64,000 nucleotides of DNA. Origin: Spirochaetaceae bacterium (lineage in GTDB: Bacteria > Spirochaetota > Spirochaetia > DSM-2461). Both the position numbers and the translations under genes were made by a program. Below the pieces are notes generated by a model, which was not told the origin of the DNA, did no database searches, and saw only the letters and a program-made list of their open reading frames with translations. The stretch lies in NCBI GenBank assembly GCA_051531975.1, contig JAOPTT010000002.1, positions 441,968 to 505,967 of the forward strand, read 5' to 3'. Below, piece after piece: positions 1,378-51,021 of the stretch (within the stretch, counting starts at the first letter, position 1; each line of letters opens with the position of its first letter).

Positions 1378-4300
1378 TTAATTATTAAAATAACCTTCCA
1401 ATAACTCTACAGCATCCTTCATTTTATATCGCCCAACAAGTTTCTGGGCATCTTTAATCAGAGAAATTTGGGATTCATTAATCTCTGAACCTAAGAGATC
1501 TACCATAAGATCCTTGGCTGGCTTTGGCTTTCGTGAATTTAGATGACCAATAATACTCCTAATTTTACCATTTATCTGGTCTTCACTTATTTTATTAAGT
1601 GGTACATTTGGTTTTTCTTCTTGGACTAATACGCCAGATTTATTAATATCATCGATTAACTCTAAAAGAATACCATCAACTGTTTTTAGATCCGATTCTA
1701 TTTCTAAATCATCCTTTAATAGCTGTTCTACATCTTTAAATTTCTCCTGTAGAATTGCCGACCCTATGTTTCCCGATATCCCTTTTACAGTGTGGGCAAG
1801 CCGGATAGCTTCCTCTTTTTTATCGTCTAGAAGTAGTTTTTTAAGATCTGCCGAGACACTACTATAGTTTTCTATAAATTGTTGTAAAATAGATTTATAG
1901 AGTTTTATATTACCAGCTACTCTAGTTACACCACCTTCGACATTTAGTCCGTCAATATTTGGTAGAATACCAACCTGGTGATTAACATCCATATTTGTAT
2001 ATTTAGTGGGTAACTCTCTATCTTCTTTTTTAATCCATCTGGCTAACGAGTGCCAGAGTTTATCTGTTTCTATAGGTTTTGTAATATAGTCGTTCATTCC
2101 TGTATCCATAACCTTGTGTCTAACCCCAGTCATAGCATCCGCAGTCATGGCAACAATAGGTAACTCTTTTGAGTCAAAAGTTTCACGAATCTTTAAGGTA
2201 GCGTCATAACCATCTAATACTGGCATCTGTAGATCCATTAAAATAATGTCATATTTCTTCTTTTCGCACATGTCTACAGATTCTTGGCCATTATTAGCAA
2301 TATCTACATAAAAACCTTCACCTTCTAGGAGCTCAATCGCTACTTGTTGGTTAATTTCGTTATCTTCAGTTAGAAGTATTAAAGCACCTCTAACCTGTTC
2401 AAAGCCCTCAGGATACTGGCTTTTATGCCGTCTTGCCCTTGTTACACCTTTAAAACCATAACAATCTAGAATAGAGTTTAGTAGCAGGGACTGATTAATA
2501 GGTTTTACAATTGAACCATCAAAGTTATTCTTTTTTATCTCTTTATCAATCTCTTCGCTATTAAAACCAGAAACTAATATAAATTTAGGATATTTTTTGA
2601 TTCCTAACACTTCTTTGATCTTTTTTGCAGTTTCAAATCCATTCATTCCAGGCATTTTATAGTCTATTAAAACGATATCAAATGTTTTACCACTCTTAAA
2701 TAGTTCTAGTGCTTCATAACCATCTTTAGCTGAGTCAATAATCATAGAAAAATCTGTTATATATTCCACTAATACGTCCCGGCTATTTTCATTATCGTCT
2801 ATAACCAAAATTTTAAGTTCTGTGATTTCAGGAGGTACAATCTCTTTTCTCTGATTTTTTGCAATATCTAATTCTGAAGTGAAGTAAAAATTTGATCCCT
2901 CACCTTCTATGCTTTCAACTCCAATTTGTCCATGCATTAATTCAACTAATCTTTTACTAATAGAGAGTCCTAAACCTGTTCCCCCATATTTTCTTGTTGT
3001 GGAGGTATCAGCCTGAGAAAATGCTTGAAACAGTTTGTTTTGCTGCTTATTACTTAGACCAATTCCAGTATCTTTTACATTATATTTAATAATTACAGTT
3101 TTATCATTTATTGATTCTAATACTGCCTGAACCATAATTTCACCACTTTCTGTGAATTTAATAGCATTATTAGTTAAGTTAAGAAGTATCTGACCAAGTC
3201 GTAATGGATCCCCAATTAAATTAATCGGTAGTTTTGTATCAACGTGGAATATAAGTTCTAGGCCCTTATCTTTAGCTTTTTCGCTAACTATACTTCCTAG
3301 GTCTTCAAAAACATTGTGTAGGTTTAGAGGAATTGATTCTATATTAAGTTTCCCAGCTTCAATTTTAGAGAAGTCTAAGATATCATTTATTATACCTAAT
3401 AAATTATTGGAAGAGTTATTAATTTTCCCAATATAGTCACTCTGCTTTTCTGTTAAATCTGTTTTAAGTATCAGATGAGACAGGCCAATTATTGCGTTCA
3501 TAGGTGTTCTGATTTCGTGGCTCATATTTGCAAGAAAATCACTTTTAGCTTTTGCAGCTTCAATTGCGTTCTCCTTAGCATCTATAAGTTCTGTCATATC
3601 TGTTGCAATACCAGCTATGGCAGTAAGTTCTCCAGAAACATTGTAAATAGGGAACTTTATAGATAAAAATGCTAACTCTTTTCCATTTTTTATATTTTTC
3701 TCTTCAGTTCGTACAGTATGCCTACCCTCTATTATCTCTAAATCAACTTTTCTATATCTTTTTCCAGCTTCTCCATATAACTCTTCATCTGTTTTTCCAA
3801 TAGTAGAACCAGGTTCAAAATCGTTTAACAGTTCCCAGTTTTTATTAGCTAACATATATTTACCATCTAAATCTTTAGCATAGATTAGGTTTCCACTGTT
3901 GTTAATTATAGATTCTAAGAATTTCTTATTCTCTTCTAAAGCTATATCAGCTCGTCTTTGCTCATCTATATCCCAAAAGTTCCCAGCGATTCTAACAATT
4001 TTACCATTTTCATATATAGGGTCCCCAGTAGTTCTTGCCCAAAATTCTCGGCCACTCCAGGATTTAAAAGATACAGTAAGGTCATATGGTATTCCCTCAG
4101 ATATGGCCAAATTAAATGCATCGGATACTTTCTGCTTATATTCACCTACGTAACAATCGATACTCTCTCCAACCCAATCTCGATCTGGCTCAGCAATCAT
4201 CATACTTTTTTCTATATCATGTAAACTATACAACTCGTCGGTCCAGAAAATTTTTGAAGATACTATATCAAACTCCCAACCACCCATTTTAGCAAGACGT

Positions 4301-7300
4301 AGAGATCGATTTAAGAAATCCTCACTCTTTCGTAGCTCACTGTCTTTTTTCTTCTGATCTGTAATATTCTGGTGTATTCCTACACAGTTACTGGCCGTTC
4401 CATTAGTACCGATATTAACAAGATATCGAACAAAAACATTATCTATTTCACCCTCTCCGTTCTTGACTCTATACTCAAATTCATCAAAATAACTTTCTGA
4501 ACTCTCCATCGCCTTAGTTATTCTAGAATTAAGAATGTGAACATCATCTTCCAATACAAATGTATTTAAAAAAGTTTCTGATGATAATATGTACCCATCA
4601 AAGTCCTCTTTATCTACTTTTAATATACGGTAAAACATATCGTTTAATGTAAACTGGAGAGTAGTTAAGTCTAAGGTCCAATGGGCAAGTTTTGCAGTCT
4701 CTGATGCAAAAACCATCTGCTGATTATAACCCAACAACTCTTTAGTTCTTTTATCTACACTCTCTTCTAGCTCTTCGTTCGATCTTTTAAGATATCTTGT
4801 TGCTTTTTCCCCAATAAAAATACCAAAAAGAGTTGTTGCAATACTTAATAACAGTACAATAGTAAGAATTAGAATCAGTATGTTCCGAAGATTATAATAC
4901 GTAGACATAGCTTCTTTTAAATCTATTTTTGTTGTTATTCCAAACTCATAGATTTCCGACCAATACCAGGTACCATAAACTTCACTGTTTCTATAATCAG
5001 GATACTCTGTAAGTTTAGAATCTAGAGCTGTAGTGAAACTCTTCTTAAGTGAATATTCATCTATATATTCATTGTTTTCGAATCTTGTAGGCGTAATTAT
5101 TTCCCCTACATCATTAAATGCATAGGTTTCTCCAGTAGAGCCAAAATGACCAAGAGAGAATAACCTAGAGAAATTAATATCACTTCTCTCTTCGAAAACT
5201 AATAGGCCAATAATTTTATTACCATCTTTTATTGGTGAGACATAATGAATATCTGAATCGTTTTCAATTGTCCTAGGTGGTATAAATGTTGTATCAAGAT
5301 ATTTATTTGGATTTAGTGTATATCTTTTTCCAACAATAGAACTATCTGATGAGTAGATAGTAGTAGCTCTGGAGTTAATTATATGAAAGTTCTCCCACTT
5401 GGATCTATTTATCTGCATTTTTAGGAAGCTATCAAGGTCACTATATTCACTACTGCTTAACCTATGGTTTAATGAAACTTTTTGTAGATCTTTAACCAGT
5501 TTAATAAGCCTAGAGTTCTCACTATTAATCTCTACTTCAGATAAATTATTGCTAATTATTATATCTAAGGTTTCATATATCGTTTTTAGTTGTAGCTCTA
5601 TTTTTTCTTTTGTTTCTGATAGTGATTTAAAATATATAGAGTTTAATGATGTATAAGTTAATAAAACAACAATTGTAATACTAACCCCTAGAGATATAGC
5701 ACTAAAAACTTTCATTCTGGTAACATTTAGCTTTTCATTATTGAAGTTTTTCTTTTTTACAAAAATTAAGATATTTAATAAAAAGACAATAAATATAATT
5801 ATAGATATTACTAATAGGATTGATCCTAAAGAGTTTTGTCTTGTTACCTCTAATTTGTCTTTTAAAGTTTTATCTTCTAACCATTTTTTATTTAATTTTG
5901 ATAATTCTAAATCTGTAACAACACTCATACTCTTATTTAATAGTGATAAAAGTTCTGGCCAATCCTTTCTAAGACCTAAACTTAAACTAAGTTCGCTATT
6001 ATCAAGTTCAGGCAGAGTCCCACCTTTTTTAAGATTAGATATAGAGTGTTTATTAATATAATAATTAACTACTGGCGAGAGTTCTTGGAGAATATCGGCA
6101 TCACCTTTAGATACGGCTAATATTAATTCTTCGGTATTGGTTATTCCAAGAGATTTTACCCCAGGTAGGTTTTTAATTATCTCTTCACTATATGTCCCTT
6201 TTTGATAAACAAATGTTTTACCTTTAATATCTTCTAAACTTCCAACTATTTGTTCTGTATTCCTTATATATAGAGTGGGATAAAACCCCATATATGGATT
6301 TGTAAAGTTCAAATGTTCTTTTCTAACTTCAGTTTCTAATATATTAAGTATTAAATCGACTTTGTTTTCTAAAATAGCACCTTTAGTTTCATTCCATCGG
6401 TGTTCAGTAGAAAACTGAACCTTAATACCAATAATATTAGCAAGCAGTTTAATATAATCTACAGAGTACCCTTGAGGTCTTCCACTTTTATTAAAATCAA
6501 ACGGGACCCATGTTTTATCATTATGGACAGTTATTACAGGGTTGTTTTCTATCCACCTTTTTTCATCCTGGGATATTTGAATTCTGCTTTCTTCAATTTC
6601 GTTATCAACAAATCCCCATTTTTCACCAATGGAGTTAACTTCATCTTTTGTTAAGCTGTTAATAGCCTTATTTAAAATATCTTCAAATCCTACCCAATCG
6701 GATCTTACACCAACATGGAGTTTTCCAGCATCTAAAGTATCATCCCCTGTTAGGCTCGCAAATTCTATATCACTTATATTATTCTCTTTTAGTAGATAAT
6801 TAATCACAGGTAATCTATCAAGAAAAACATCGGCTTTATCATATAAAACAAAAGTTAAAGCCTCTAGTGCCCCTTGGGCTATTACTAATTCTATTTCAGG
6901 ATAATTCTCCATTAGATAAGTATGTATAGTATATCCCTCTATAACTGCAATAGAACGGCCATTCATATCGGAAAGATCTTTTATTGGTGGTGTTCCCTTT
7001 TTTTTAAAAAGTGCTCTAGGAGTCTTTAAGATGTTATCTGAAAAGTTTAAATAGACTTTTCTATCTTCTGTAATAGCTACACTATGGACAAGGTCTATCT
7101 CTCTATTTTTTACCATTTGTAAAAGTTCAGCCCATGTATAACCATTTACCCACTCTACAGTGATCCCAAGTTTTTTTGCTAAAAGTTCAACATATTCTAT
7201 TGAGTAACCTGTAGGAACTCCATCTCTTACAAAATCAAAAGGAGGCCAATCCATTTCGTTAGAAACTTTAACTACATTGTGATCTTTAAGGAATTGTCTT

Positions 7301-7383
7301 TCCTGAGGAGTTAGCTGTATATCTGAGGCATAAATATTAAAATAGGATAATAAGAAAATTAAACAAAGTAGAACTTTTTTCAC
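1378..7383 (-). CDS. hybrid sensor histidine kinase (2x periplasmic binding domain, Cache-like, PAS domains, HisKA/HATPase, 2x REC, Hpt)
   Basis: DWPPFDF PBP motifs; [17 protein letters not shown]-box; GGTGLGLSI G-box; LIDYKMP and LMDLQMP receivers; AHTVKG Hpt. Confidence 0.95.
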   Translation of the reverse strand: MKKVLLCLIFLLSYFNIYASDIQLTPQERQFLKDHNVVKVSNEMDWPPFDFVRDGVPTGYSIEYVELLAKKLGITVEWVNGYTWAELLQMVKNREIDLVHSVAITEDRKVYLNFSDNILKTPRALFKKKGTPPIKDLSDMNGRSIAVIEGYTIHTYLMENYPEIELVIAQGALEALTFVLYDKADVFLDRLPVINYLLKENNISDIEFASLTGDDTLDAGKLHVGVRSDWVGFEDILNKAINSLTKDEVNSIGEKWGFVDNEIEESRIQISQDEKRWIENNPVITVHNDKTWVPFDFNKSGRPQGYSVDYIKLLANIIGIKVQFSTEHRWNETKGAILENKVDLILNILETEVRKEHLNFTNPYMGFYPTLYIRNTEQIVGSLEDIKGKTFVYQKGTYSEEIIKNLPGVKSLGITNTEELILAVSKGDADILQELSPVVNYYINKHSISNLKKGGTLPELDNSELSLSLGLRKDWPELLSLLNKSMSVVTDLELSKLNKKWLEDKTLKDKLEVTRQNSLGSILLVISIIIFIVFLLNILIFVKKKNFNNEKLNVTRMKVFSAISLGVSITIVVLLTYTSLNSIYFKSLSETKEKIELQLKTIYETLDIIISNNLSEVEINSENSRLIKLVKDLQKVSLNHRLSSSEYSDLDSFLKMQINRSKWENFHIINSRATTIYSSDSSIVGKRYTLNPNKYLDTTFIPPRTIENDSDIHYVSPIKDGNKIIGLLVFEERSDINFSRLFSLGHFGSTGETYAFNDVGEIITPTRFENNEYIDEYSLKKSFTTALDSKLTEYPDYRNSEVYGTWYWSEIYEFGITTKIDLKEAMSTYYNLRNILILILTIVLLLSIATTLFGIFIGEKATRYLKRSNEELEESVDKRTKELLGYNQQMVFASETAKLAHWTLDLTTLQFTLNDMFYRILKVDKEDFDGYILSSETFLNTFVLEDDVHILNSRITKAMESSESYFDEFEYRVKNGEGEIDNVFVRYLVNIGTNGTASNCVGIHQNITDQKKKDSELRKSEDFLNRSLRLAKMGGWEFDIVSSKIFWTDELYSLHDIEKSMMIAEPDRDWVGESIDCYVGEYKQKVSDAFNLAISEGIPYDLTVSFKSWSGREFWARTTGDPIYENGKIVRIAGNFWDIDEQRRADIALEENKKFLESIINNSGNLIYAKDLDGKYMLANKNWELLNDFEPGSTIGKTDEELYGEAGKRYRKVDLEIIEGRHTVRTEEKNIKNGKELAFLSIKFPIYNVSGELTAIAGIATDMTELIDAKENAIEAAKAKSDFLANMSHEIRTPMNAIIGLSHLILKTDLTEKQSDYIGKINNSSNNLLGIINDILDFSKIEAGKLNIESIPLNLHNVFEDLGSIVSEKAKDKGLELIFHVDTKLPINLIGDPLRLGQILLNLTNNAIKFTESGEIMVQAVLESINDKTVIIKYNVKDTGIGLSNKQQNKLFQAFSQADTSTTRKYGGTGLGLSISKRLVELMHGQIGVESIEGEGSNFYFTSELDIAKNQRKEIVPPEITELKILVIDDNENSRDVLVEYITDFSMIIDSAKDGYEALELFKSGKTFDIVLIDYKMPGMNGFETAKKIKEVLGIKKYPKFILVSGFNSEEIDKEIKKNNFDGSIVKPINQSLLLNSILDCYGFKGVTRARRHKSQYPEGFEQVRGALILLTEDNEINQQVAIELLEGEGFYVDIANNGQESVDMCEKKKYDIILMDLQMPVLDGYDATLKIRETFDSKELPIVAMTADAMTGVRHKVMDTGMNDYITKPIETDKLWHSLARWIKKEDRELPTKYTNMDVNHQVGILPNIDGLNVEGGVTRVAGNIKLYKSILQQFIENYSSVSADLKKLLLDDKKEEAIRLAHTVKGISGNIGSAILQEKFKDVEQLLKDDLEIESDLKTVDGILLELIDDINKSGVLVQEEKPNVPLNKISEDQINGKIRSIIGHLNSRKPKPAKDLMVDLLGSEINESQISLIKDAQKLVGRYKMKDAVELLEGYFNN

Positions 7384-10713: not shown

Positions 10714-11850
10714 TTATTGTGCGAAAATAATTTCCTTTAAAACTTCTTTTGCTGGGGAATATTGTAAATTCAAGTCATTTGCCACAGGTTTACATGTTAC
10801 TTTACCTTTAAAAACATTTAATCCTTTTAATAAAGCTTCATTTTCAAGTAGTGCTTTTTGATATCCTTTATTTGCAATTTCAAGAGCATATCTAAGAGTC
10901 ACATTTGTTAATGCAAATGTAGATGTTCTTGATACTGCACCAGGCATATTTGCAACAGCATAATGTAGTACTCCGTGGGTTACATATACTGGAGCATCAT
11001 GTGTTGTAATTCTGTCGATAGTCTCTATTGATCCACCTTGATCAATTGCTACATCTACAATAACAGAACCTTTTGTCATTGTTTTAATCATATCTTCTGA
11101 AACTAACTGAGGAGCTTTAGCACCTGCTACTAAAACAGCACCGATAACAAGGTCAGCTTTTTTAACAGCCTTAGCTATATTAAACTCATTGGACATTAAA
11201 GTATTAATTCTTCCACCGTATATATCATCTAGATAAGCTAGTCGTCTTGGATTATTATCTAATATTGTAACCTGAGCACCTAATCCCATTGCCATTTTTG
11301 CAGCATTAGTTCCAACAACTCCACCACCAATAATTACAACTTCTCCAGCTTCAACTCCCGGAACTCCACCTAAAAGTATACCTTTTCCACCTTCGTGTCT
11401 TTCAAGGAATTGTGCTCCAATCTGTGTAGCCATTCTTCCTGCTACTTCACTCATTGGAACTAGTAGAGGTAATGAACCATCGGCTAATGCTATTGTTTCG
11501 TATGCAATACCAATAACTTTTTTATCTAGAAGGGCTTTAGTTAGTTCTGGTGCTGGTGCTAAATGCAGATAAGTAAAAAGAATCTGACCTTCTTTAAAAA
11601 GATCGTATTCTGCTGGTAGAGGCTCTTTAACTTTCATGATCATATCAGAGATGTCAAATACTTCTTTTGCAGTTTCTTTTATTGAAGCTCCGGCTTTTAT
11701 ATACTCTAAATCCAAAAAACCACTTCCGATTCCAGCATCTTTTTCAATGTAAACCTGATGATTTGATTTAACTAATCCAGAAACACCTGCTGGTGTTATA
11801 GCCACTCTATTTTCGTTGTTTTTGATCTCTTTTGGTACACCAATAATCAT
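10714..11850 (-). CDS. ald: alanine dehydrogenase
   Basis: [46 protein letters not shown]. Confidence 0.97.
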
Positions 11851-11875: not shown

Positions 11876-12319
11876 TTATATTAAATATGTTTGATTGTCT
11901 TTTTCCGAGTTAAGTATCACCATGGTATTTGTTTTATCTACACCATCAACACTCTTAATTCTATTTAATACTTTTGTTAGGGTATCTGTGTTTTTTGTAA
12001 TTATTTTAATCATGTAATCAAATTCACCAGAGATATAAGAACATGATAAAACATCATCTTCATCATCGATGAAATCTAGAAATGTATGACTTGTCTGAGG
12101 ATTTTTTAAACTTATTAACATAAATGCTGATAACTCTTTTTCTAATTTTACAGGGTCTAATATAGCAGTATATTTTTGTATTACTTTAGAGGTTTCTAAT
12201 TTACGTAACCTTTCTGATACTGCCGAAACCGATAGGTTAACCTCTTTTGCAATATCAGAAGCGGAGATCCTAGCATTAGATTGTAGTAGTCTTAATATGT
12301 TTTTATCAACTTTATCCAT
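11876..12319 (-). CDS. Lrp/AsnC-family regulator (probable ald regulator)
   Basis: [19 protein letters not shown]...ERLRKLE HTH and SGEFDY; start taken at ATG 12319 rather than the longer track start 12355. Confidence 0.9.
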
Positions 12320-12531
12320 AACTAAATTATGCAGCATAAAGCGTGAAGTACGCAACTAATTTAGGCCAAAATAGAGTATTATCCTGTTTATTAAGGCATG
12401 ATAGTAATTTGACAAGAAAAATTACTGTTCAGAACTAAAAAGTATGATGAAACAGAAATTATTAGCTTTTATTTAGCTTAATTCCACTTAAAAGTTAGAC
12501 ATTTTCCCATACTTTTTAGTGGTTATTTCAA

Positions 12532-13043: not shown

Positions 13044-13697
13044 TTATACAGTTAGTGCATTTTGTATAAATTTCATAATCTCTTTTATCTGATCATGATA
13101 GTCTTCTGCGAATGTGGAACCTAGGAAGATTTGCATTCTGCCCTTATAATATTCTGATGTAAATGAGAATTGATAGACAACAATTAAGTTATCTAGTAAA
13201 AAACTTAATATTCTGTCATCAATATCTAGATTTATTTGTCCACTATCTCGAGCATTTTTAATAACTTCAAGATACAAATCTCTAGTGACTGTTTCTAAAG
13301 TTCCTGATATTTTTTTAGATATATTTGTTAAACTCTGAGTAGACATATCTAGATATATTTGGTTCAACAGTGGGTATTTTGTAGCATAGTCATGGGCACT
13401 ATAAAACATCTGCTCTACTATACTAAAAAAATCTTTAGAAGTATCTATAGTATCTAAAATAGAGCTTAAAGCGTTAAACATTTTTTCTACTATAGTTAAA
13501 AACAGGTCATCTTTTGAGTCGAAATAACTATATAGAGCACCTATACTTATATTTGCATGTTTTGCAACTTTATTAATACTTGTACCATTAAATCCATTTT
13601 TAGCAAATTCTTCTACTGCGGCAGTTAAAATACCCTCCTGCTTTTCAAGAGGAATATTCTTAAATCTATCTTTATAAAACTTCTGTTCTGTGTCCAT
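13044..13697 (-). CDS. TetR/AcrR-family regulator
   Basis: AAVEEFAKNGFNGTSINKVAKHANISIGALYSYFDSKDDL. Confidence 0.93.
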   Translation of the reverse strand: MDTEQKFYKDRFKNIPLEKQEGILTAAVEEFAKNGFNGTSINKVAKHANISIGALYSYFDSKDDLFLTIVEKMFNALSSILDTIDTSKDFFSIVEQMFYSAHDYATKYPLLNQIYLDMSTQSLTNISKKISGTLETVTRDLYLEVIKNARDSGQINLDIDDRILSFLLDNLIVVYQFSFTSEYYKGRMQIFLGSTFAEDYHDQIKEIMKFIQNALTV

Positions 13698-13706
13698 ACG
13701 TCCTAC

Positions 13707-15959
13707 TTAAATTGTATTTCCAAGAGCATAACCAGCTTTAACAGCCTCTAAAACTCTACCTGGTGTAAATGAATCACCAATGTTAAAAATTTCTTTAGAT
13801 ATTCTCTCTTTTGTTAGCTTATAATATAGATCATCATTAGGTTTTGCTCCAGTAGCTAATATAATTAGATCAGATTTTAATTCTTGGTCGGAATAGTTCT
13901 GTTTTACCTTTTTTGCAAATGGATTTATAATATTTTCAGGAATTAAAGGAGTCCAAGTATTAATAGGACTTGGTACTGTTTTAGACATATTACGACTAAC
14001 AATAATAGACCCATCTTTTACCTCTTTTAAAGTTGTACAATTAAAGAGATTTACACCTTTTTTATTAAGGTAATATATTAAACTATGCCTATTAGAAGTA
14101 CAGGTTTTTGGCATTAAATGATCACCCATTTCTACAATAGTTACTTTTTTACCATACTCATAACTTAACATATGGGCAACTTCACATCCTACATCTGCTC
14201 CACCAATAACTGTGTAATTATTAAACTTTGAATATTTATCTGGGTTATTAAGATATTCCATTGCTGGAATAACATTTTTATTATTAATTCCTTTAACAGG
14301 AGGAACTAGCGCTGTGGTCCCGGAACATGTAACAAGAACATCAGGTTTTAGTTCTTTTAACATATTTGAATCTGCAATGGTATTAAACATAGTTTTAATA
14401 TTATTTACCTTTATCTCGTTATTTAAGTAGGTTACATAGTTTTTTATCTCGTATTTTATTTTAGGTACACTACCACCTAGGAGGCTTCCACCGGCGATAT
14501 CATTTGAGTCTATAATTGTAACATCATGTCCCCGTTTATCCAGTGTTAGGGCTAAAATAACTCCAGCAGGACCAGCTCCAACTACTACTATTTTCTTTCT
14601 GTTTTCTGTTAGTTTTAAGTCGTTTTGATATACATCTTCAAAGGCAGTTCGTGGGTTTACTGCACAATGTGGGTGCCCACCTGAATCTAACTGGCCTAAA
14701 CAACCCTCGTGGTCTCCAATACATGGAATAATTCTATCAACTTCACCTTTATAAACTTTATTTGGCCAAAATGGGTCTGCTAATAGAGGTCTAGCTAACA
14801 TTACTAAATCGCATTTATTTTTCCGTAGTGCATCTTCTGCAACATCTGGAAATCCTAGTTTCCCCACACCAACTATTGGTACATTTTGTCCTTTATTTGT
14901 TGTAATACCTTCATCTGCAAAATGTTTTTTTACTAAATTTGCAACTTCTAGATAGAGACCTGGAGGCATTGTATTTGGTGGATGTGGGAACCACCAGTTA
15001 TCGTATCCACCTAAGTCTACATCAAACATATCAACACCAGCTTTTACTAGGTTTTTCATGTAGTCTAGGGTCATTTCAACAGTTCTCTCTTTTGCAAACT
15101 TTTTAAGAACTGGCTCTGTTTTCATTAATTCGCCATAGGTCGCTTGTAGAATTAAAGAGAGGTCGATTCTATAATAGATAGGAAAGTGAACTCCTACTCT
15201 TTTTCTGATCTCTTTTATCATATCAATACCGAAGTTCTGATAATAACTGTAACGGCCTAATTTACGTCTATTGTAAGCAGGGTCTGTCATCTGTTCAATT
15301 AGATATCCAGAGTGACCATGAAGATAGACTCCATCAATTTGTAACTCTTTAGCATCTATAGCAGCCTGCCCTGTTTTTTTAATAATTTTTTTGCACTCAA
15401 AGTCTGTTATTGGTCTACAAGGAATTTGAGGTATGTAAAAGTTAGGATTCCAGGATGATGATATAGGCATCTTAAATTTCTTAGTTAGACACTCTGGGTT
15501 TCCAACTCTCCCCATTCCTGGGGCTAACTGGATGAAAAACTTAGCTCCATGGGCATGACAGCCCTCTGCTATAGTTCTCCAACCAGAATATGTTGATCTA
15601 TGGGTATCAATTCTAGGAAAGATTCCTGTGGCATCAACATCCCCGTAGGATGGGTCGTCGTTTACACTAACAGGGATCATACCTGTAGTAATTAGACCTG
15701 CACCACCCTTTGCCCGTTCAACAAAATAAGAGATAAGTTTATTACCTGGTTTACCCATTTCGTCAGCCATATTAACATTACCCATAGGCCCCATAACTAT
15801 TCTATTTTTTAACTTAACACTATTTATTGTGATAGGTTCAAACATAGAGGTATATGGTTTAAGGTTATCTGACATTAATCCCTGTTTCATTTTAGAATCG
15901 TCATCAAACCATGTGTTATAACTATCTACTAACGTGCTTATCTCTTTTGCAAAACTCAT
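13707..15959 (-). CDS. Fe-S flavoenzyme, NADH:flavin oxidoreductase (Old Yellow Enzyme barrel + Fe-S + FAD domain; enoate reductase/BaiCD-like family)
   Basis: LKNRIVMGPM, ERAKGGAGLI, HGHSGYL, LARPLLADP, CIGDHEGC...CAVNP, VVGAGPAG. Confidence 0.9.
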   Translation of the reverse strand: MSFAKEISTLVDSYNTWFDDDSKMKQGLMSDNLKPYTSMFEPITINSVKLKNRIVMGPMGNVNMADEMGKPGNKLISYFVERAKGGAGLITTGMIPVSVNDDPSYGDVDATGIFPRIDTHRSTYSGWRTIAEGCHAHGAKFFIQLAPGMGRVGNPECLTKKFKMPISSSWNPNFYIPQIPCRPITDFECKKIIKKTGQAAIDAKELQIDGVYLHGHSGYLIEQMTDPAYNRRKLGRYSYYQNFGIDMIKEIRKRVGVHFPIYYRIDLSLILQATYGELMKTEPVLKKFAKERTVEMTLDYMKNLVKAGVDMFDVDLGGYDNWWFPHPPNTMPPGLYLEVANLVKKHFADEGITTNKGQNVPIVGVGKLGFPDVAEDALRKNKCDLVMLARPLLADPFWPNKVYKGEVDRIIPCIGDHEGCLGQLDSGGHPHCAVNPRTAFEDVYQNDLKLTENRKKIVVVGAGPAGVILALTLDKRGHDVTIIDSNDIAGGSLLGGSVPKIKYEIKNYVTYLNNEIKVNNIKTMFNTIADSNMLKELKPDVLVTCSGTTALVPPVKGINNKNVIPAMEYLNNPDKYSKFNNYTVIGGADVGCEVAHMLSYEYGKKVTIVEMGDHLMPKTCTSNRHSLIYYLNKKGVNLFNCTTLKEVKDGSIIVSRNMSKTVPSPINTWTPLIPENIINPFAKKVKQNYSDQELKSDLIILATGAKPNDDLYYKLTKERISKEIFNIGDSFTPGRVLEAVKAGYALGNTI

Positions 15960-15960
15960 T

Positions 15961-16479
15961 CTATTTAATATCCTTGTAATATTCTTTAAACTTTGTGGCT
16001 TTCATAACTTTACCAGCTATTCCACCTAACCACATAATTATAAAGTAGTTTAATTTTAGATCCATTAATTCAACAAGATTACCATCAGGGTCTTTTAGAA
16101 AGATCCATTGGCTACCGGCAGTCTCCTGGGGTTCTATTAAGAAGTTTAACTCATCTTTATAAGTATTAAACCATTTTGGTACATTTCTAACATCTAATGT
16201 AAAATGGGTAGGTCCTGGTTTGTGCCAAAGTGGATGACTAGATTCTAATTGATTTTTAAACTCAAAGATCTCAATTACTTGACCTTTTGGAGCTCGCAAA
16301 AAACCTAATCTTACACTGTTATCTTCTAACTCATAGAGAGGAAACAGACTTTTTACAGTTTCTGAATCTAAAGTTTGCTCATCTATTAATAAAAAACCAA
16401 AATATTTATGATACCAGCTTACAGATTTTTCGAAATTTGAAACTGTTAAACCTATATGACTAACTGAACGTATTTTCAT
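15961..16479 (-). CDS. VOC/glyoxalase-family protein
   Basis: HIGLTVSN, IEIFE, HFTLDV, FLKDPDGNLVEL. Confidence 0.9.
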   Translation of the reverse strand: MKIRSVSHIGLTVSNFEKSVSWYHKYFGFLLIDEQTLDSETVKSLFPLYELEDNSVRLGFLRAPKGQVIEIFEFKNQLESSHPLWHKPGPTHFTLDVRNVPKWFNTYKDELNFLIEPQETAGSQWIFLKDPDGNLVELMDLKLNYFIIMWLGGIAGKVMKATKFKEYYKDIK

Positions 16480-16487
16480 GTTTCCTC

Positions 16488-17270
16488 CTATTTTGCTAAA
16501 CTTCCAACTAGAACCATATACTCACCTAGTTGTGCCCCGTATTCTGGAGCTCCTTCCATAACTAACTTCTGCTTAATTGTAGCTTCTATCATGTCATCGA
16601 TTTCCATTAAAATCCCTAAAGCACTATCTGTAGAGTCAAATCTCATAGTAAAAAATGGCTTAGATCGTTTGTATATTCCTCTAGAAGCTTTAGATTTTCC
16701 AGCTTTTAATCTAATAAATGCTGATAGATCTTCATCCCCTTCAACTCTCCAGGAATAAACTCTATCTGGACTCTTTTTTATCCAGTTAGAAATAGCAGGG
16801 TGTCCAGCTTTGTTAAGTGAACTAATACCAGAAGATAGAAGGTAGAACATTAACTTAACTAAAAGACGTTTTGTCTCTTCATCTTCTGGTGGTTTCTCCA
16901 TACCTAATAGCTTCGCCATCTTCATTAACGCGCCTAAAGATGATATTAATAACCCTACATTTTTAAGCCCTATAATCTTAGGTAGTTTACTACTAGTTCC
17001 TTTAAAAAAGCCGTTAAAAAGAGCAATTGTTTTAAACTCTAACTCTAATGTTGGCTCATCTATAACACCTTTTACAACAGTCCATTCCCCCTCTTCTATT
17101 ACAAAGTGGGTTCCATGTTTAATACCTTCATCTAGGGCACTAATCTGCACTGTAGCAGTAGTTTTTGCAAACTTTTTAGTTAGTTTTTCATCGTTATTTA
17201 CAACTACTTTAACTAAGGGAAGTACTGCATTTAAAAATATAGTATTGGCATATTTTTCCTGTTCAGTCAT
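16488..17270 (-). CDS. hypothetical protein, probable tandem SCP2 (sterol/lipid carrier)-like fold
   Basis: paralogous in layout to 20440..21192; THFVIEEGEWTVVKG...LELEF and FTMRF...DMIEATIKQKLVMEG resemble SCP2 repeats. Confidence 0.55.
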   Translation of the reverse strand: MTEQEKYANTIFLNAVLPLVKVVVNNDEKLTKKFAKTTATVQISALDEGIKHGTHFVIEEGEWTVVKGVIDEPTLELEFKTIALFNGFFKGTSSKLPKIIGLKNVGLLISSLGALMKMAKLLGMEKPPEDEETKRLLVKLMFYLLSSGISSLNKAGHPAISNWIKKSPDRVYSWRVEGDEDLSAFIRLKAGKSKASRGIYKRSKPFFTMRFDSTDSALGILMEIDDMIEATIKQKLVMEGAPEYGAQLGEYMVLVGSLAK

Positions 17271-17272
17271 TT

Positions 17273-18280
17273 TTATACCTCATCTTCCCAGTCGTCGTCC
17301 TCTTCAAAATCTTTACCCATTATCTCTCTAACAGAGTCAACAATTCCATTAGTATCATAACCGTAATGATTCATCAGATCCTCGTGTAGTCCAATAATTG
17401 AGAATGTATCTGGAACACCTAACCTCTTAAATCCACAAGCTTTACCACTCTCAGCTAGTACTTCTGCGACAGCACTACCTAAACCACCAATAACATTGTG
17501 GTCTTCTACTGTAATTATTCGTCTAGTCTCCTGAACTGCTTTTAAAATTGCATCTTTATCTATTGGTTTAATAGTATGCATATTAATTACTCTGATTTTA
17601 AGTCCATCTACACTGTCTAATATTTTAGCTGCTTCTGCTGCCTGATATACTCCAGAACCACAAGCTATTATAGTTAGATCGGTACCATCGTTAATTTCAA
17701 TTGCTTTACCAATTTCAAATTCGTAGTCACCATTGTCGTATAGCCTATTATCAAAACCTCTGTTAATTCTTAAATACATAGGGCCTTTTGTATGGTAAGC
17801 AGCATGTACAGCTTTAGCAGTTTCTGTTCCGTCTGCAGGAACTATAACAGTTAAGTTTGCCATAGTTCTCATAATACCAATATCCTCGGTACAGTGGTGG
17901 GTTGAACCAGCCTGGCCAAAAGAGAGACCAGCGTGGGTTGCGATCATTTTAACATTTAAATTTTGGTAACATATATCTGTATGAACCTGATCCAATGCTC
18001 TCATAGAGGTAAATACTGCAAAAGTAGATACAAATGGAACTAGACCTGCGCTGGCCATACCAGCTGCTACACCAAACATATTCTGTTCAGCTATTCCGAG
18101 ATTAAAAAATCGATCTGGGAATTTTTCACCTAAAACACCTATCTTAGTAGATTTACCTAAGTCAGCTGTTAAACCAACTAAATCGTCGTGGTCAGTTGCT
18201 AAGTCTACTAATGTTTTTCCATAAACTTCTGCTGTTGATAAGTCTTTTGTATCAAAGACTGTATAAGTTAATCCTGCCAT
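17273..18280 (-). CDS. split transketolase, C-terminal (pyrimidine-binding + C-terminal) subunit
   Basis: GIAEQNM, RALDQV, GSTHHCTED, TIKPID, EDHNVIGGLGSAV. Confidence 0.95.
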   Translation of the reverse strand: MAGLTYTVFDTKDLSTAEVYGKTLVDLATDHDDLVGLTADLGKSTKIGVLGEKFPDRFFNLGIAEQNMFGVAAGMASAGLVPFVSTFAVFTSMRALDQVHTDICYQNLNVKMIATHAGLSFGQAGSTHHCTEDIGIMRTMANLTVIVPADGTETAKAVHAAYHTKGPMYLRINRGFDNRLYDNGDYEFEIGKAIEINDGTDLTIIACGSGVYQAAEAAKILDSVDGLKIRVINMHTIKPIDKDAILKAVQETRRIITVEDHNVIGGLGSAVAEVLAESGKACGFKRLGVPDTFSIIGLHEDLMNHYGYDTNGIVDSVREIMGKDFEEDDDWEDEV

Positions 18281-19167
18281 TATTTTACACCCTCCATTCT
18301 TTTAGCGTGGAAAGTATCTAAACTGTCCTGAGCTTCTTTTAATTTATCTGAATCAAGGCCACCATAATGCCATAAATAACTATCTTCCATAAAATTAACA
18401 CCACAACCTTTAATAGTATGTGCAATAATTACAACAGGTTTTTCAGTTGCAACTTTTGCATACTCTATCGCTTCGTTAATCTCTTCTATATTGTTTCCAT
18501 TTATCTCTTTAACATCGAATCCAAAGGCTGCCCATTTATCTGCAAACGGTTCAAGTTTCATAATATCCTCTGTTTTACCGTCCATCATGCATTTGTTTCT
18601 ATCAACAATAGTAATAACATTGGTGGTATTAAAGTTAGAAATTGCCATTGCAGCTTCCCAAATAACACCTTCGTCACACTCTCCGTCCCCTACTAAACAG
18701 TATGTTTTATAATCTTTTTTTAAGTTTCTAGCTGCTAAACCAAGGCCTAAGGATATTGGAAGCCCATGACCTAAAGACCCAGTTGATGCGTCTACTCCAG
18801 GTACTTTCGTAGAGTCTAAATGCATACCTAATTTTGAACCTGTGTGGTTATACTCTTTTAATAGTTCTTTATCAAAATATCCTTTATCTGCTAAAACTGG
18901 TGCATAACCTACACCACAATGTCCTTTACTTAATATAAACCGATCCCGGTCTTCCCATTTAGGATTATTAGGATCAATATTCATATGTTTATGATAAAGT
19001 ACTGTCATAATATCCATTGCACTTAATGAACCACCTACATGACCACTTCCGGCCCATACAATTGTTTTTAAACAGAGGTGTCGTAGTTCGTGTGCTTTCT
19101 CATTAAGTCGTATTAATTCCTGCGCTTTTTCTGTAATTTTAATTTCTTCCTGTTTTTCTAATACCAT
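18280..19167 (-). CDS. split transketolase, N-terminal (TPP-binding) subunit
   Basis: GHVGGSLS, DRFILSKGH, STGSLGHG, GDGECDEG...N. Confidence 0.95.
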   Translation of the reverse strand: MVLEKQEEIKITEKAQELIRLNEKAHELRHLCLKTIVWAGSGHVGGSLSAMDIMTVLYHKHMNIDPNNPKWEDRDRFILSKGHCGVGYAPVLADKGYFDKELLKEYNHTGSKLGMHLDSTKVPGVDASTGSLGHGLPISLGLGLAARNLKKDYKTYCLVGDGECDEGVIWEAAMAISNFNTTNVITIVDRNKCMMDGKTEDIMKLEPFADKWAAFGFDVKEINGNNIEEINEAIEYAKVATEKPVVIIAHTIKGCGVNFMEDSYLWHYGGLDSDKLKEAQDSLDTFHAKRMEGVK

Positions 19168-19182
19168 TATTTCCTCCTAAAA

Positions 19183-20430
19183 CTATGAATGTCTGGCTTT
19201 TACTACTTTAAATGCCTCGTCGGCTACTTCTATAGTGAATTTAACATCTTCATCTGAAATTGCAGTGTTCATAAATTGGTTATGGTGATTTGTAAAATAA
19301 ACCCCACGTTTAACACACTCTGCTACCCACTCCTGGTGTAACATCAGAGAGTCGTCGTTTGTAATTCTCATGAACCACATTGATGGATGTCCAGATATTT
19401 TTAAGTCGAAGCCGTACTTTTTACCAGCTGCAACCAATCCATCAGTAATTTTTGTACCTGTTTTATACATTAAAGCTGGTGCATCTAGATCCTTTAGTTT
19501 TTTCATAGTTGCAAGACCAGCAGCAAAAGGTACAGCTGACATCCAGTAACTACCTGTGTACATAATTCCAGCAGCAGTATCTTTTAACTCGTCTGTTCCA
19601 CAAAGGGCACTAAAGTTCCACCCGTTACCAAGTGCTTTACAAAAACACATTAAGTCCGCTTTAAAACCAAAGTAGTGGTCAGAACCTTTAAGATCCAGTC
19701 TAAATCCACACCGTACATCATCAATTGCTAATACTATTCCATTATCTGTGCAAAGTTTTCTTACCTGATTCCAGAAGTCCTCTGCTGGCATTTGGTTATC
19801 GTCAAATATTGGGTGGTAATAGGGAGTAGACATTAAACAAGCAATTTCACCTTTGTTATCTTTTATTACTTGTTTTAATTGTTCGATATTATTCCACTCA
19901 ACCATTATATTATTAGTAATATCCTCTTCTATAATCCCTGGGTGTCCTAGTTTTTGTGTCCAAGGTGCAACTCCGTGGTATCCACCTTTAAATAAAATTG
20001 TTTTTTTCCGACCTGTATGAGCCTTAGCTATCATTACTGCAAAACTTGTTACGTCTCCACCGTTTTTAGCAAAAAATGCCCAGTCCGCCATAGCAACTGT
20101 ATCTACTAAAGTTTCAGCCATTTCAACTAATTTAAAAGATGGGGAAGTTGTACAGTTACCTATATCCATCTGAACCTTTACAGCATTGTCTACATCTGGG
20201 TCGTTATACCCTAGAACGTTTGGCCCATAGGCACACATGTAGTCTAAAAATTTATTTCCATCAACATCCCAAAAGTATGCACCCTCTGCACGGCTTGAGA
20301 AAAATGGAAATGCATCTACTGGGATAAAACAACTCTCAGCAGGTCCTAAGTGACCATAAACCCCTGTAGGGATTACCTTTAAAGCTCTATTAAATAGCTC
20401 GCTACTTTTATTATATTTATATGTCTGCAT
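19183..20430 (-). CDS. class III PLP aminotransferase (GSA-aminomutase-like family)
   Basis: WDVDGNKFLDY, YHG, IDDVRCGFR, FCKALGNG (PLP lysine); context is not haem biosynthesis. Confidence 0.9.
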   Translation of the reverse strand: MQTYKYNKSSELFNRALKVIPTGVYGHLGPAESCFIPVDAFPFFSSRAEGAYFWDVDGNKFLDYMCAYGPNVLGYNDPDVDNAVKVQMDIGNCTTSPSFKLVEMAETLVDTVAMADWAFFAKNGGDVTSFAVMIAKAHTGRKKTILFKGGYHGVAPWTQKLGHPGIIEEDITNNIMVEWNNIEQLKQVIKDNKGEIACLMSTPYYHPIFDDNQMPAEDFWNQVRKLCTDNGIVLAIDDVRCGFRLDLKGSDHYFGFKADLMCFCKALGNGWNFSALCGTDELKDTAAGIMYTGSYWMSAVPFAAGLATMKKLKDLDAPALMYKTGTKITDGLVAAGKKYGFDLKISGHPSMWFMRITNDDSLMLHQEWVAECVKRGVYFTNHHNQFMNTAISDEDVKFTIEVADEAFKVVKARHS

Positions 20431-20439
20431 TAGTTCCTC

Positions 20440-21192
20440 CTATAGGTATGCTGGCACTTGGCCCAGTATTTTATTCATATTGTCTAACATTGGGAGAAAC
20501 CCCTTAAGTTTTAATGTTTTAGTAGCTACACAGGTATAAGAATCAATATTCCCATTTAACAGGTCACCTGCTGTTTTCATGTCTTCGAAAGTCATAGCTG
20601 CTCTTACATTCTGTGGAATACCTTTTGTTGCTGTTAAAAAACCAGCTTTGGCATTTAGACAGACTGCAGGCCCCTCTTTTATAGTTACCGATATGTTTCC
20701 ATCAGGTATTCGACCACCATTTAATTTACCCATAGGATCAGTATTACCAATTTCAGCTAAAGCAAAAAATGCTGTATAAGCTGTTAGTGTTGTATTTATT
20801 TTTGCATAGTGTTTGTCTTTTAAAAGTTCTGGAGTTGGTTTTAAATAATAACTAAGTTTATCAGTTAAAACTGTGAAGTCTTTTAACAAGAAGTTAAGTT
20901 TTGTAAAACCTTTAACTGGGATTGGATTTGCTTCCCCGTCTACCATCTTATTAAAGTGTTCAGGGGAAGTTAGAATTAACTTAACATTATTAGGATGTTT
21001 ACCTTTCTCAAATGTACATTTCCCATCTTTGAACCTTAAAATACCTTTTGGCCCATTTTTAACAGATATCTGCATTCTAATATTTTTATCTTTTATTAGA
21101 TCCTTCATCTCCAAATCCATTTCACACAAATCTTCAAGATTTCTAAGAACTGCATATAAATTAATATTAGCTAATGTTAATTTATCCTTCAC
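20440..21192 (-). CDS. hypothetical protein, probable tandem SCP2-like lipid-binding fold
   Basis: two internal repeats: ILRFKDGKCTFEKG...FNKMVDGEANP and AAMTF...LLNGNIDSYTCVATKTLKLKG; GTG start with GGAGG RBS. Confidence 0.6.
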   Translation of the reverse strand: MKDKLTLANINLYAVLRNLEDLCEMDLEMKDLIKDKNIRMQISVKNGPKGILRFKDGKCTFEKGKHPNNVKLILTSPEHFNKMVDGEANPIPVKGFTKLNFLLKDFTVLTDKLSYYLKPTPELLKDKHYAKINTTLTAYTAFFALAEIGNTDPMGKLNGGRIPDGNISVTIKEGPAVCLNAKAGFLTATKGIPQNVRAAMTFEDMKTAGDLLNGNIDSYTCVATKTLKLKGFLPMLDNMNKILGQVPAYL

Positions 21193-21224
21193 CTTTTTCC
21201 TCCATAATTTACTTTATACATGTA

Positions 21225-21280
21225 GCGAGCATTTGCTCACCTTCAGGAAATAGTTTAACACCTGTTTGCTTATTTGGCAA
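21225..21280 (-). promoter_or_regulatory. sigma70-type promoter plus candidate TetR operator for the 21192->13044 operon
   Basis: minus strand TTGCCA(21280-21275)-N17-TAAACT(21257-21252); dyad GAGCA-TT-TGCTC at 21227-21238 just downstream. Confidence 0.55.
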
Positions 21281-21368: not shown

Positions 21369-22121
21369 ATGGAATGGGATGATAAATACTCTATTGGTAT
21401 AAAAGAGATTGACGATCAACACAAACAACTATTCAAGTTTATTAAGAAATATAAAGAGAGAGAGAAATTACTAAAACTGCTACTAAACTATGCCAGATAT
21501 CATTTTCATTCTGAAGAACTATTTATGGAAAAAATTAAATATCCTGAATTGCAGTCTCATAAAGAAAAACATAGTGTTTTAATACATGAACTAGAAAGTA
21601 TCTTATTAAATCCGGAAGATACTATTATATACAACCCAAAGGACTTTCATCCCTTTTTAATTTCATGGATTATAGACCATATAATAGAAGATGATGTTCT
21701 AATTGGAAAATTCTACGATCCTAAAAGTCAAAAACATCAGACCACTCAAGATATCTTAGAATACAACATTAAAAAATTAAAACTACTAAATAAATATGAA
21801 GTATTGCCATTAAATGAAATAGAGATTAAAAGGGATAATTTTATACAAAAGGTATTTGCAAGCAAAAAGATAGATGACTTAAAATCCCTTCTGGAGAACT
21901 TAGAAGTTATTGATAAGATAGCTAACAAAGGTAAACTTTACCCTCATGAAATATTAAGAACAAAAATGCAGATAATAAAAATAATAGACCTTGAAAATAT
22001 AATAGAGACAGAACCAGATATGGAGAAAAAACTAGAAGCTCTTAATATGTTTGAAGATCAGGGTTTAATTACTAAAGAGTATTTTGATAATGTTAAAACT
22101 AGTTTACTAAACTTCATGTAA
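21369..22121 (+). CDS. bacteriohemerythrin with C-terminal SHOCT-like repeats
   Basis: EWDDKYSIGIKEIDDQH, HFHSEE, HKEKH, DHIIEDD; tail LEALNMFEDQGLITKEYFDNVKTSLL. Confidence 0.85.
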   Translation: MEWDDKYSIGIKEIDDQHKQLFKFIKKYKEREKLLKLLLNYARYHFHSEELFMEKIKYPELQSHKEKHSVLIHELESILLNPEDTIIYNPKDFHPFLISWIIDHIIEDDVLIGKFYDPKSQKHQTTQDILEYNIKKLKLLNKYEVLPLNEIEIKRDNFIQKVFASKKIDDLKSLLENLEVIDKIANKGKLYPHEILRTKMQIIKIIDLENIIETEPDMEKKLEALNMFEDQGLITKEYFDNVKTSLLNFM

Positions 22122-22179: not shown

Positions 22180-22506
22180 ATGGATAATGTAACAGATAAA
22201 ACAGGTTTTGATAATAAATTAAAACAGGATAAAATAGTAATAGCAACTTTTATAGTAGATTGGTGCCCGGATTGCCACTTTATAGACCCATTTATAGATA
22301 ATATAATAAAAAAGTTTGAGTCAGACATTTATGCTTTTAGTGTAAATGTTGACCAAGTTCCAGAAGTAAAACAGGAACATAATGTTTCTGGTATTCCTAG
22401 CTTTATTGCATTTAAAGATGGAAAAGAGATCCATAGATTTGTAAGTAGACAGAGGAAAACTGAGCAGGAGATAACTACATTTTTTAGTGAATCTTTAAAT
22501 AAATAA
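22180..22506 (+). CDS. thioredoxin-family protein
   Basis: WCPDC, GIPSF. Confidence 0.92.
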   Translation: MDNVTDKTGFDNKLKQDKIVIATFIVDWCPDCHFIDPFIDNIIKKFESDIYAFSVNVDQVPEVKQEHNVSGIPSFIAFKDGKEIHRFVSRQRKTEQEITTFFSESLNK

Positions 22507-49093: not shown

Positions 49094-49209
49094 TTATACC
49101 TACTATTTTTTTTAATTTATCATATGATATTATAAATAACCATCTATATTATCAAGCTAGTTTTCAATCTATAATAATTAAATGGTAAAAACCCTTTCCC
49201 CTTATTTAA

Positions 49210-51012: not shown

Positions 51013-51021
51013 GATGTAATT

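Follow-up and report, generated by a model that had tools for sequence, protein, structure and literature searches.

The window analysed here, a stretch of 64,000 nucleotides from a Spirochaetaceae bacterium (contig JAOPTT010000002.1), carries on its minus strand an operon of eight genes that encodes two predicted proteins of the SCP2 fold, a class III aminotransferase related to FumI, a split transketolase with a remodelled substrate pocket, a VOC protein, an Fe-S flavoenzyme and a TetR-family repressor. We suggest, with about as much confidence as doubt, that the operon is inducible and serves the deamination, and then the transketolase cleavage, of a long-chain, sphingoid-type 2-amino-1,3-diol. 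Its purpose would be the detoxification or use of antimicrobial free sphingoid bases. An earlier reading of the same DNA, made from the letters alone (the original prediction), had proposed that a lipophilic amino-diol or ketol is handled by a pathway not yet described. That proposal is now partly supported, as the SCP2 folds, the likeness to FumI, the loss of an Asp and an Arg from the transketolase pocket and a recurring slot for an ene-reductase all agree with it.

The eight open reading frames (ORFs), taken from the ORF list of the window, are co-oriented at 13044-21192. In transcription order they are separated by 9, 15, -1 (an overlap), 2, 8, 1 and 9 nucleotides (nt) by their coordinates, so that the largest spacing is 15 nt, just as had been claimed ('gaps at most about 15 nt'). 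The features of the operon and its promoter region, and two genes beyond its end, are as follows.

21252..21280, minus strand: promoter-like hexamers, TTGCCA-17 nt-TAAACT, with TG before the -10 (9/12 positions match)
21225..21240, minus strand: 16-nt palindrome GTGAGCAAATGCTCGC, GTGAGC-N4-GCTCGC, probable TetR operator, lying between the -10 hexamer and the ribosome-binding site
20440..21192, minus strand: tandem-SCP2 protein 1, 250 residues (Pfam SCP2, 23.5 bits against a cutoff of 21.3, marginal)
19183..20430, minus strand: class III FumI-like aminotransferase, 415 residues (Pfam Aminotran_3)
18280..19167, minus strand: transketolase N-terminal subunit, binding thiamine pyrophosphate (TPP), 295 residues (PF00456 Transketolase_N, E 3e-48)
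17273..18280, minus strand: transketolase C-terminal subunit with Pyr and C domains, 335 residues (PF02779 Transket_pyr, E 7.5e-41; PF02780 Transketolase_C, E 1.2e-29)
16488..17270, minus strand: tandem-SCP2 protein 2, 260 residues (SCP2 by predicted fold)
15961..16479, minus strand: VOC (glyoxalase-fold) protein, 172 residues (PF00903 Glyoxalase, E 2.9e-13)
13707..15959, minus strand: Fe-S flavoenzyme of the FadH/enoate-reductase/BaiCD superfamily, 750 residues, accessory (PF00724 Oxidored_FMN and PF07992 Pyr_redox_2)
13044..13697, minus strand: TetR-family repressor, 217 residues, last gene of the operon (PF00440 TetR_N, E 1.8e-16)
11876-12355: AsnC-type regulator beside the alanine dehydrogenase
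10714..11850, minus strand: alanine dehydrogenase (Pfam AlaDh_PNT, E 3e-88)

Among solved structures, the aminotransferase is closest to PDB 6hbs (E 6.2e-93, 315 bits, residues 9-410 against 7-403). Structures of glutamate-1-semialdehyde aminomutases score 155 bits at best, and the nearest NCBIfam aminomutase models stay below their cutoff (221 against 398 bits). The lysine that binds pyridoxal phosphate (PLP), Lys265, is invariant in 24 orthologues and lies within a C-K-A motif that aligns to G-K-C of FumI. By full-length similarity and the PLP lysine, the enzyme can be assigned to the FumI type of class III aminotransferases, in the HemL-like branch. The entry 6hbs, titled 'aminopentol aminotransferase', corresponds to FumI of Sphingopyxis sp. 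MTA144 in the part of the literature that deals with it (PMC9858248). As described in the relevant passages of an earlier study (PMC3136697), FumI acts on hydrolysed fumonisin B1, a sphinganine mimic with a C20 chain and a 2-amino-3-ol group, and deaminates it at C2; it prefers pyruvate as acceptor and has a Km of 1.1 uM for its lipid substrate.

Both hypothetical proteins of the operon are, by their predicted structures, tandem SCP2 proteins, and the SCP2 likeness ascribed to 16488..17270 and 20440..21192 is thereby borne out for the two of them. The 260-residue protein matches no Pfam or NCBIfam family. AlphaFold2 models (pLDDT, the predicted local distance difference test, 93.3 and predicted template-modelling score, pTM, 0.90 for the 260-residue protein; 92.1 and 0.86 for the 250-residue protein) each repeat one alpha/beta unit twice. 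Foldseek searches of these models against the PDB at E<=0.001 returned SCP2 folds only, 19 matches for the 260-residue and 30 for the 250-residue protein, including AF1534, the C-terminal domain of the SdsA1 alkylsulfatase, UbiJ-SCP2 and human, insect and yeast SCP2. Since each match spans about 105-190 alignment columns of the 250-260 residues, or about half of the chain, the SCP2 fold appears to be duplicated within each protein. The two proteins are distant full-length paralogues: direct BLASTP between them gives no similarity (E 0.21), and hhalign with profiles of 42 homologues each aligns 239 columns (98.3%, E 1.4e-14), so that their kinship is seen by profile comparison only, BLASTP being blind to it. 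They had been said to flank the core of the operon, and this holds for one; the other is placed between the transketolase and VOC genes.

A modelled complex supports the docking of SCP2 protein 1 on the aminotransferase, as the original prediction had envisaged for an SCP2-like partner. Three runs scored 0.61, 0.65 and 0.01 (median 0.61), the best of three controls scored 0.00, and the mark of 0.61 is reached by 116 of 157 solved complexes and by 2 of 215 mismatched pairs. The pLDDT of the partners is at least 84 and the agreement of contacts between runs at least 0%. In the modelled interface, the C-terminal half of SCP2 protein 1 (residues 154-241) contacts aminotransferase residues 13-39, 160-164, 209, 360-366 and 382. 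Fused forms of SCP2 protein 1 were not found among longer proteins, which is weak evidence.

Gene order in other genomes tells the same two proteins apart. Homologues at E<=0.001 number 325 among 644 candidates for the 250-residue protein and 1094 among 1751 for the 260-residue protein, and neighbourhoods were compared in 25 genome loci found with the former and in 29 distinct other loci holding the gene of the latter. The gene for SCP2 protein 1 is always directly upstream of that for the aminotransferase, which is next in 22/22 loci extending far enough, and SCP2 protein 2 is always encoded directly downstream of the transketolase. Thirteen of the 22 loci with the 250-residue protein and the aminotransferase also have a cluster-type transketolase, and in 7 of those 13 the module of transketolase and 260-residue protein is inverted as a block; in the other 9/22, no cluster-type transketolase was found within the fetched flank. 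Because the gene order holds throughout, inverted modules included, each SCP2 protein is tied to an enzyme of its own, protein 1 to the aminotransferase and protein 2 to the transketolase.

The transketolase itself has a remodelled substrate pocket, as judged from alignments. The nearest structure to its C-terminal subunit is 6yaj, the split transketolase of Carboxydothermus hydrogenoformans (E 2e-79). Aligned to 6yaj and to human transketolase, the subunit has Ala17 in place of human Arg318 (the 'IATR' Arg) and Ala124 in place of human Asp424 (the 'GEDG' Asp), both of which 6yaj and the human enzyme keep, and it retains Ser44, His116, His128 and Arg174 in common with the two. From the Escherichia coli, yeast and human enzymes we take the Arg position to help bind the substrate phosphate and the Asp position to hydrogen-bond the 2-hydroxyl of the acceptor, equivalent to the 4-hydroxyl of the donor; the phosphate-binding set of human transketolase we take to be Arg318, Ser345, His416 and Arg474. 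With the Asp and one phosphate-binding Arg gone, the pocket would suit a donor that continues as an alkyl chain from C4 on. Read by eye, the alignment shows the SGH, SKGH, GMH, GDGE and WHYG motifs retained in the N-terminal subunit, the catalytic and cofactor roles of these residues presumably being those of the E. coli, yeast and human enzymes. Because the TPP and catalytic motifs are kept, the transketolase should be active.

The same changes recur wherever a transketolase adjoins a homologue of the 260-residue protein. Among all 32 such rows, one of which is that of the window and two of which come from one and the same record, the Asp has given way to Ala in 32/32, the Arg to Ala in 23 and to Gly in 7, with Lys in 1 and Arg itself in 1, and His116 and His128 are kept in 32/32. 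Transketolase paralogues of the same genome (L027 and the full-length L030-L032) keep both Arg and Asp. In a quick tree the cluster-linked rows, 18 of 27 in all, form one group with a support of 83 by the Shimodaira-Hasegawa-like approximate likelihood ratio test (SH-aLRT). Among the 150 best representatives drawn from 1.84 billion proteins, 55 have a canonical signature (43 RSHDHR, 12 RAHDHR), 3 have the signature described here, and the others show dozens of differing ones. Pocket alignments thus show this particular remodelling to be specific to this clade, altered pockets as such being common among split transketolases, and so many signatures among the C-terminal subunits suggest many uncharacterised substrate specificities.

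Another class of split transketolase was seen along the way. It adjoins the inverted modules in gut and rumen loci (L013:15736-17501, L014:8685-10498, L017:15734-17535 and L019:7355-9108) and is also present in the genome of the window (L028). Its pocket reads R-C-D-N-H-R, with Asp for His and Asn for Asp.

The operon is probably under local control. The dyad proposed as an operator is real and longer than had been claimed: it extends over 16 nt (21225-21240), occurs once in the window and had 0 matches in 100 shuffles. Related GC-rich palindromes stand upstream of the operon in 5/5 other upstream regions examined (L001, L002, L041, L042 and L045); they are built from GAGCGAG/CTCGCTC or GCGAGC/GCTCGC, with two copies each in L041 and L042, in regions that are otherwise AT-rich. 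The palindrome is likely the site that the TetR protein binds. The promoter that had been proposed is a weaker case. Its location fits, but it matches the consensus at 9/12 positions, and promoter-like sites number 37 in the region against 35 +/- 6.4 in shuffles; such sites being equally frequent by chance, only its position supports it. A homologous TetR gene adjoins the cluster in 9/29 of the other loci holding the 260-residue gene, and the gene is an accessory part of the cluster rather than a core one.

Two further enzymes could act on the products of the core. The VOC gene directly follows the gene for the 260-residue protein in 15/28 assessable other loci. Its protein belongs by Pfam to the VOC superfamily of glyoxalase I and methylmalonyl-CoA epimerase and reaches no equivalog cutoff in NCBIfam, and its His/Glu metal ligands, H8, E70, H92 and E137, are invariant in 14/14 orthologues. 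The C-terminal 30 residues hold a basic-aromatic tail, NYFxIRxLGxLAGFFMRKGxFKxYY, that is likewise conserved in 14/14 orthologues and looks like an amphipathic helix for binding a membrane or a partner.

The Fe-S flavoenzyme joins an OYE-like FMN domain through an Fe-S linker to an FAD/NAD(P) domain, matches 1ps9 and 6qkg in the PDB and falls below the cutoffs of its NCBIfam equivalogs (BaiCD, 279 against 825 bits; bilirubin reductase, 251 against 750 bits). In L045, L048, L050 and L051 a different member of the superfamily (693 residues, 25.6% identical) directly follows the VOC gene, so that the ene-reductase slot after this gene is filled in five genomes by two lineages. At least two independent fillings of the slot speak for a real functional tie between an ene-reductase and the cluster. 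The window's own reductase was considered as a core part and rejected, since its only orthologue among 40 relatives (G021, 54% identity) lies away from the cluster. The original prediction had counted both the reductase and the TetR protein as members of the pathway, and this stands in part: the reductase slot recurs, but both are accessory rather than core.

The two reductase lineages differ in their Fe-S linkers. In the window's enzyme, residues 413-434 read C-I-G-D-H-E-G-C...C, with Asp at the usual position of the second cysteine, and the orthologue in L043 (L043:7471-9738) has the same Asp-containing linker; the lineage of L045, L048, L050 and L051 has C-x2-C-C-x-C...C. The Asp may point to an Asp-ligated or a 3Fe cluster.

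The scanned window ORFs of at least 100 residues include no sugar kinase, isomerase or sugar transporter, in agreement with what had been noted before. An alanine dehydrogenase lies 1.2 kb from the operon in the window and inside it in L002 only (1/29 other loci); it possibly supplies or drains the pyruvate/alanine pair, its link to the operon being uncertain. The best database matches of this dehydrogenase reach 71% identity and come from several phyla.

Put together, the parts would work as follows. The TetR protein would sit on the 16-nt palindrome until released by a lipid amine. SCP2 protein 1 would hold the lipid and dock on the FumI-like aminotransferase, which would move the C2 amino group to pyruvate and so yield a 1,3-dihydroxy-2-ketone and alanine, the latter being open to recycling by alanine dehydrogenase. 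The VOC enzyme, presumably metal-dependent, may convert the ketol by way of an ene-diol, one possibility being an epimerisation at C3. With SCP2 protein 2 serving it, the split transketolase would then cut between C2 and C3, passing the C2 unit to an acceptor aldehyde and releasing a fatty aldehyde. From a substrate with a 4,5 double bond this would be a 2-enal, which the Fe-S ene-reductase could saturate.

The core cassette of five genes is accessory and patchy. Homologues of the 260-residue protein occur in 5/41 relatives (its own genome included) and in 0/3 genomes of the same genus; across the class, they are found in 20/401 genomes and 13/155 genera. The records are labelled Vallitalea, Oceanirhabdus, Brassicibacter, Chengkuizengella, Tissierellia, Negativicutes, Spirochaeta and others. 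Many of the loci come from rumen and animal-gut assemblies, and the carriers also include marine and sediment organisms. The sole sequencing run that holds the operon of the window carries the label marine metagenome, no RNA run being listed for it, and the genome that contains it has 5.46 Mb in 29 contigs with about 31% G+C.

Two kinds of neighbour were seen in particular lineages. One is a pair made up of a PTS_EIIC_2 permease (PF13303) and an M28-like protein, the latter an unannotated protein of about 430 residues recognised by feature search only. They lie upstream of the SCP2 gene in L007, L011, L013, L014, L016, L017, L020, L022, L023 and L025 and downstream in L015, the permease stands alone in L004 and L005, and both are absent from the window. 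The other is seen in one family in which 6/6 sampled genomes have the cassette, where a GH20 hexosaminidase (L053:6333-8204) or a sulfatase (L054:11502-13073) adjoins it. These enzymes could be related to glycosphingolipid head groups, or be there by chance.

Several observations weigh against the deamination and cleavage of a sphingoid-type base. By stereochemical reasoning, D-erythro bases would lead to a (3R)-ketol and the donors of canonical transketolases are (3S), a mismatch that calls for either an epimerase or an altered transketolase and that the original prediction had not raised. Relatives of the VOC enzyme work through ene-diol(ate) intermediates and it could epimerise C3, yet 13/28 assessable loci are without the VOC gene, the candidate for this step. 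Similarity to FumI does not fix the substrate. The Pfam match to SCP2 is marginal, each fold match covers half of a protein with template-modelling (TM) scores by query of 0.27-0.37, and one of the three runs of the complex model reached only 0.01. In the transketolase, three canonical phosphate-binding residues are kept (Ser44, His116 and Arg174), a retention that could speak for an anionic substrate and not solely for a phosphorylated acceptor; among the cluster-linked rows, Arg persists in one and Lys is found in another; and many other split transketolases likewise have altered pockets. No ceramidase, aldehyde dehydrogenase or other downstream enzyme was consistently linked across the loci examined, where aldehyde enzymes are only scattered: an aldehyde:ferredoxin oxidoreductase (AOR) with an iron-type alcohol dehydrogenase (Fe-ADH) in L045, an aldehyde dehydrogenase in L048 and an aldo-keto reductase in L055. 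Lastly, in gut and rumen lineages the PTS_EIIC_2 permease and the M28-like protein precede the SCP2/aminotransferase pair in 13/25 loci, and such neighbours fit a water-soluble or peptide-like substrate better. With all this, sphingoid-base catabolism, which the original prediction had given as its first inference, remains the leading hypothesis on the evidence of FumI, the SCP2 folds, the pocket and the ene-reductase slot, the mismatch at C3 standing against it.

A water-soluble amine or amino-polyol, such as an amino sugar derivative or a serinol-type or peptide-derived compound, with the SCP2 proteins as structural or regulatory subunits, is an alternative that we consider unlikely. It would account for the permease and M28-like neighbours, for the HAD phosphatase that follows in 3 loci, for the Ser, His and Arg retained in the phosphate site and for the marginal SCP2 score. 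The Asp that reads sugar hydroxyls is lost in all 32 cluster-linked rows, however, which argues against a polyol tail; the two dedicated tandem proteins match lipid-binding folds only; FumI, in the passages describing it, acts on a C20 chain; no sugar kinase or isomerase was found among the scanned window ORFs; and the permease pair is missing from the window and its close group. Another alternative keeps the lipid and reverses the direction, so that a fatty aldehyde and a C2 donor (hydroxypyruvate or a ketose phosphate) would be joined to a ketol and aminated with alanine to a 2-amino-1,3-diol lipid. Both reactions are reversible, and amino-diols have been made in vitro with transketolase and transaminase in this order. 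No epimerase would be required for the (3S) product that a canonical transketolase forms, alanine dehydrogenase could supply the alanine, a D-2-hydroxyacid dehydrogenase of the glycerate/hydroxypyruvate type that adjoins the cluster in L003, L004, L005 and L045 could make hydroxypyruvate, and the AOR and Fe-ADH beside the cluster in L045 could make the aldehyde. Set against this are the catabolic role of FumI, the closest characterised aminotransferase, the patchy and accessory occurrence of the cluster (20/401 genomes of the class, 0/3 of the genus) and the absence of any linked N-acyltransferase, head-group enzyme or exporter in the loci examined; a local TetR gene with an operator over the promoter is also more typical of inducible catabolism or detoxification. 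We regard such a biosynthetic direction as quite improbable, and hold to the same low degree that anaerobes make sphingoid-type bases, probably threo, in this way, without serine palmitoyltransferase and on SCP2 scaffolds docked to the enzymes.

The likeness to FumI would also suit the detoxification of 1-deoxy analogues of sphinganine (hydrolysed fumonisins, AAL-type aminopolyols or 1-deoxysphingoid bases), with cleavage of a methyl ketol in the manner of DXS, on whose models the C-terminal transketolase subunit also scores. Fumonisin B1 is 2S,3S, so that its 2-keto product has the C3 configuration taken by transketolase-type enzymes, and many loci come from rumen and animal-gut assemblies. 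What makes this very unlikely in our view is that the histidines binding the C1 hydroxyl of the donor are kept, which points to a 1-hydroxy ketol, that no FumD-type carboxylesterase is linked in the window or the loci examined, and that carriers occur in marine and sediment settings, where fumonisins are not expected. Side-chain cleavage of a steroid or amino-steroid after the fashion of DesAB, with the Fe-S flavoenzyme acting on the nucleus like BaiCD/BaiH, had been the other substrate proposed for this operon and gained no support. DesAB is indeed a split transketolase that acts on a non-sugar ketol, SCP2 folds bind sterols, and BaiCD is the best NCBIfam model for the reductase. But the score on that model, 279 bits, is far from the cutoff of 825, the reductase is accessory and comes from two different lineages, no hydroxysteroid dehydrogenase was found in the window or linked in the loci examined, no desmolase operon is known to make use of an aminotransferase and the nearest relative of this one acts on an open-chain amino-alcohol, and the carriers include marine organisms. 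We give the steroid route hardly any credence.

Further genes of the window lie outside the operon. Divergent from the promoter region are a 250-residue protein with an N-terminal hemerythrin domain (21369-22121, plus strand) and a thioredoxin (22180-22506, plus strand), and a second hemerythrin lies at 40593-41015. At 1378-7383 (minus strand), the window encodes a hybrid sensor kinase of 2001 residues with two SBP_bac_3, PAS, HisKA/HATPase and two receiver domains. At 46117-52734 (minus strand), four large genes stand in a row, encoding proteins of 494 and 499 residues without a Pfam family, a TPR protein of 600 residues and an ankyrin-repeat protein of 570 residues, a kind of repeat that free-living bacteria seldom have.

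Guts, skin and sediments are rich in free sphingoid bases, which stem from host cells, the diet, fungi and Bacteroidota and are lethal to many Gram-positive bacteria. To our knowledge, the ways in which bacteria get rid of them are largely unknown. If the degradation of such bases is indeed the function of this operon, it would represent a kinase- and lyase-independent sphingoid-base pathway and would explain the fate of the product after a FumI-type deamination. It would also mean that nature has a transketolase acting on aliphatic substrates without a phosphate, a property otherwise pursued by enzyme engineering, that tandem SCP2 subunits passing lipids on to soluble enzymes form a new class, and that the TetR protein and its operator are a ligand-responsive pair usable as a sensor. 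Literature searches returned no paper combining a split transketolase, an aminotransferase and SCP2 proteins in one gene cluster, and searches on bacterial sphingoid-base degradation gave no transketolase- or transaminase-based route among the matches listed.

Each part of the proposed pathway resembles a known system and differs from it. DesAB (the steroid-17,20-desmolase of Clostridium scindens) and the sulfo-transketolase SqwGH are split transketolases recruited for ketols other than ordinary sugar phosphates, and the enzyme described here is likened to them by description only; by description, too, it is set apart from them, as we know of no aminotransferase or SCP2 protein in their operons. 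With the canonical split transketolase (6yaj/6yak) it shares the architecture of two subunits, and it differs from this enzyme and from the full-length sugar-phosphate enzymes in having lost the Arg and the Asp. UbiJ/UbiT and the SCP2 domain of SdsA1, which are among the best fold matches of the two SCP2 proteins, are SCP2 modules too, and their part is to offer enzymes a hydrophobic substrate; unlike them, the proteins of this operon are predicted to hold SCP2 in tandem within one chain and form two paralogues, each tied to a different soluble enzyme. The aminotransferase is like FumI, which in the passages devoted to it takes the amino group from C2 of a long-chain 2-amino-3-ol and prefers pyruvate as acceptor, in a catabolic or detoxifying role. 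The fumonisin catabolic (fum) cluster of strain MTA144, in which FumI is encoded (PMC3136697, PMC2933618), holds genes for a carboxylesterase and for tricarballylate, and the passages describing that cluster make no mention of a transketolase or SCP2 proteins, nor do they say what becomes of the keto product of FumI. The substrate of FumI also differs in being without the C1 hydroxyl that a transketolase donor needs. Sphingoid-base catabolism as it is known proceeds through sphingosine kinase, which consumes ATP, and sphingosine-1-phosphate lyase, a PLP enzyme whose retro-aldol cleavage releases a fatty aldehyde, which is 2-hexadecenal for sphingosine, along with a C2 fragment. The route proposed here would end in the same kind of products and would reach them with neither the kinase nor the lyase, by a transamination followed by a TPP-dependent transfer of the C2 unit.

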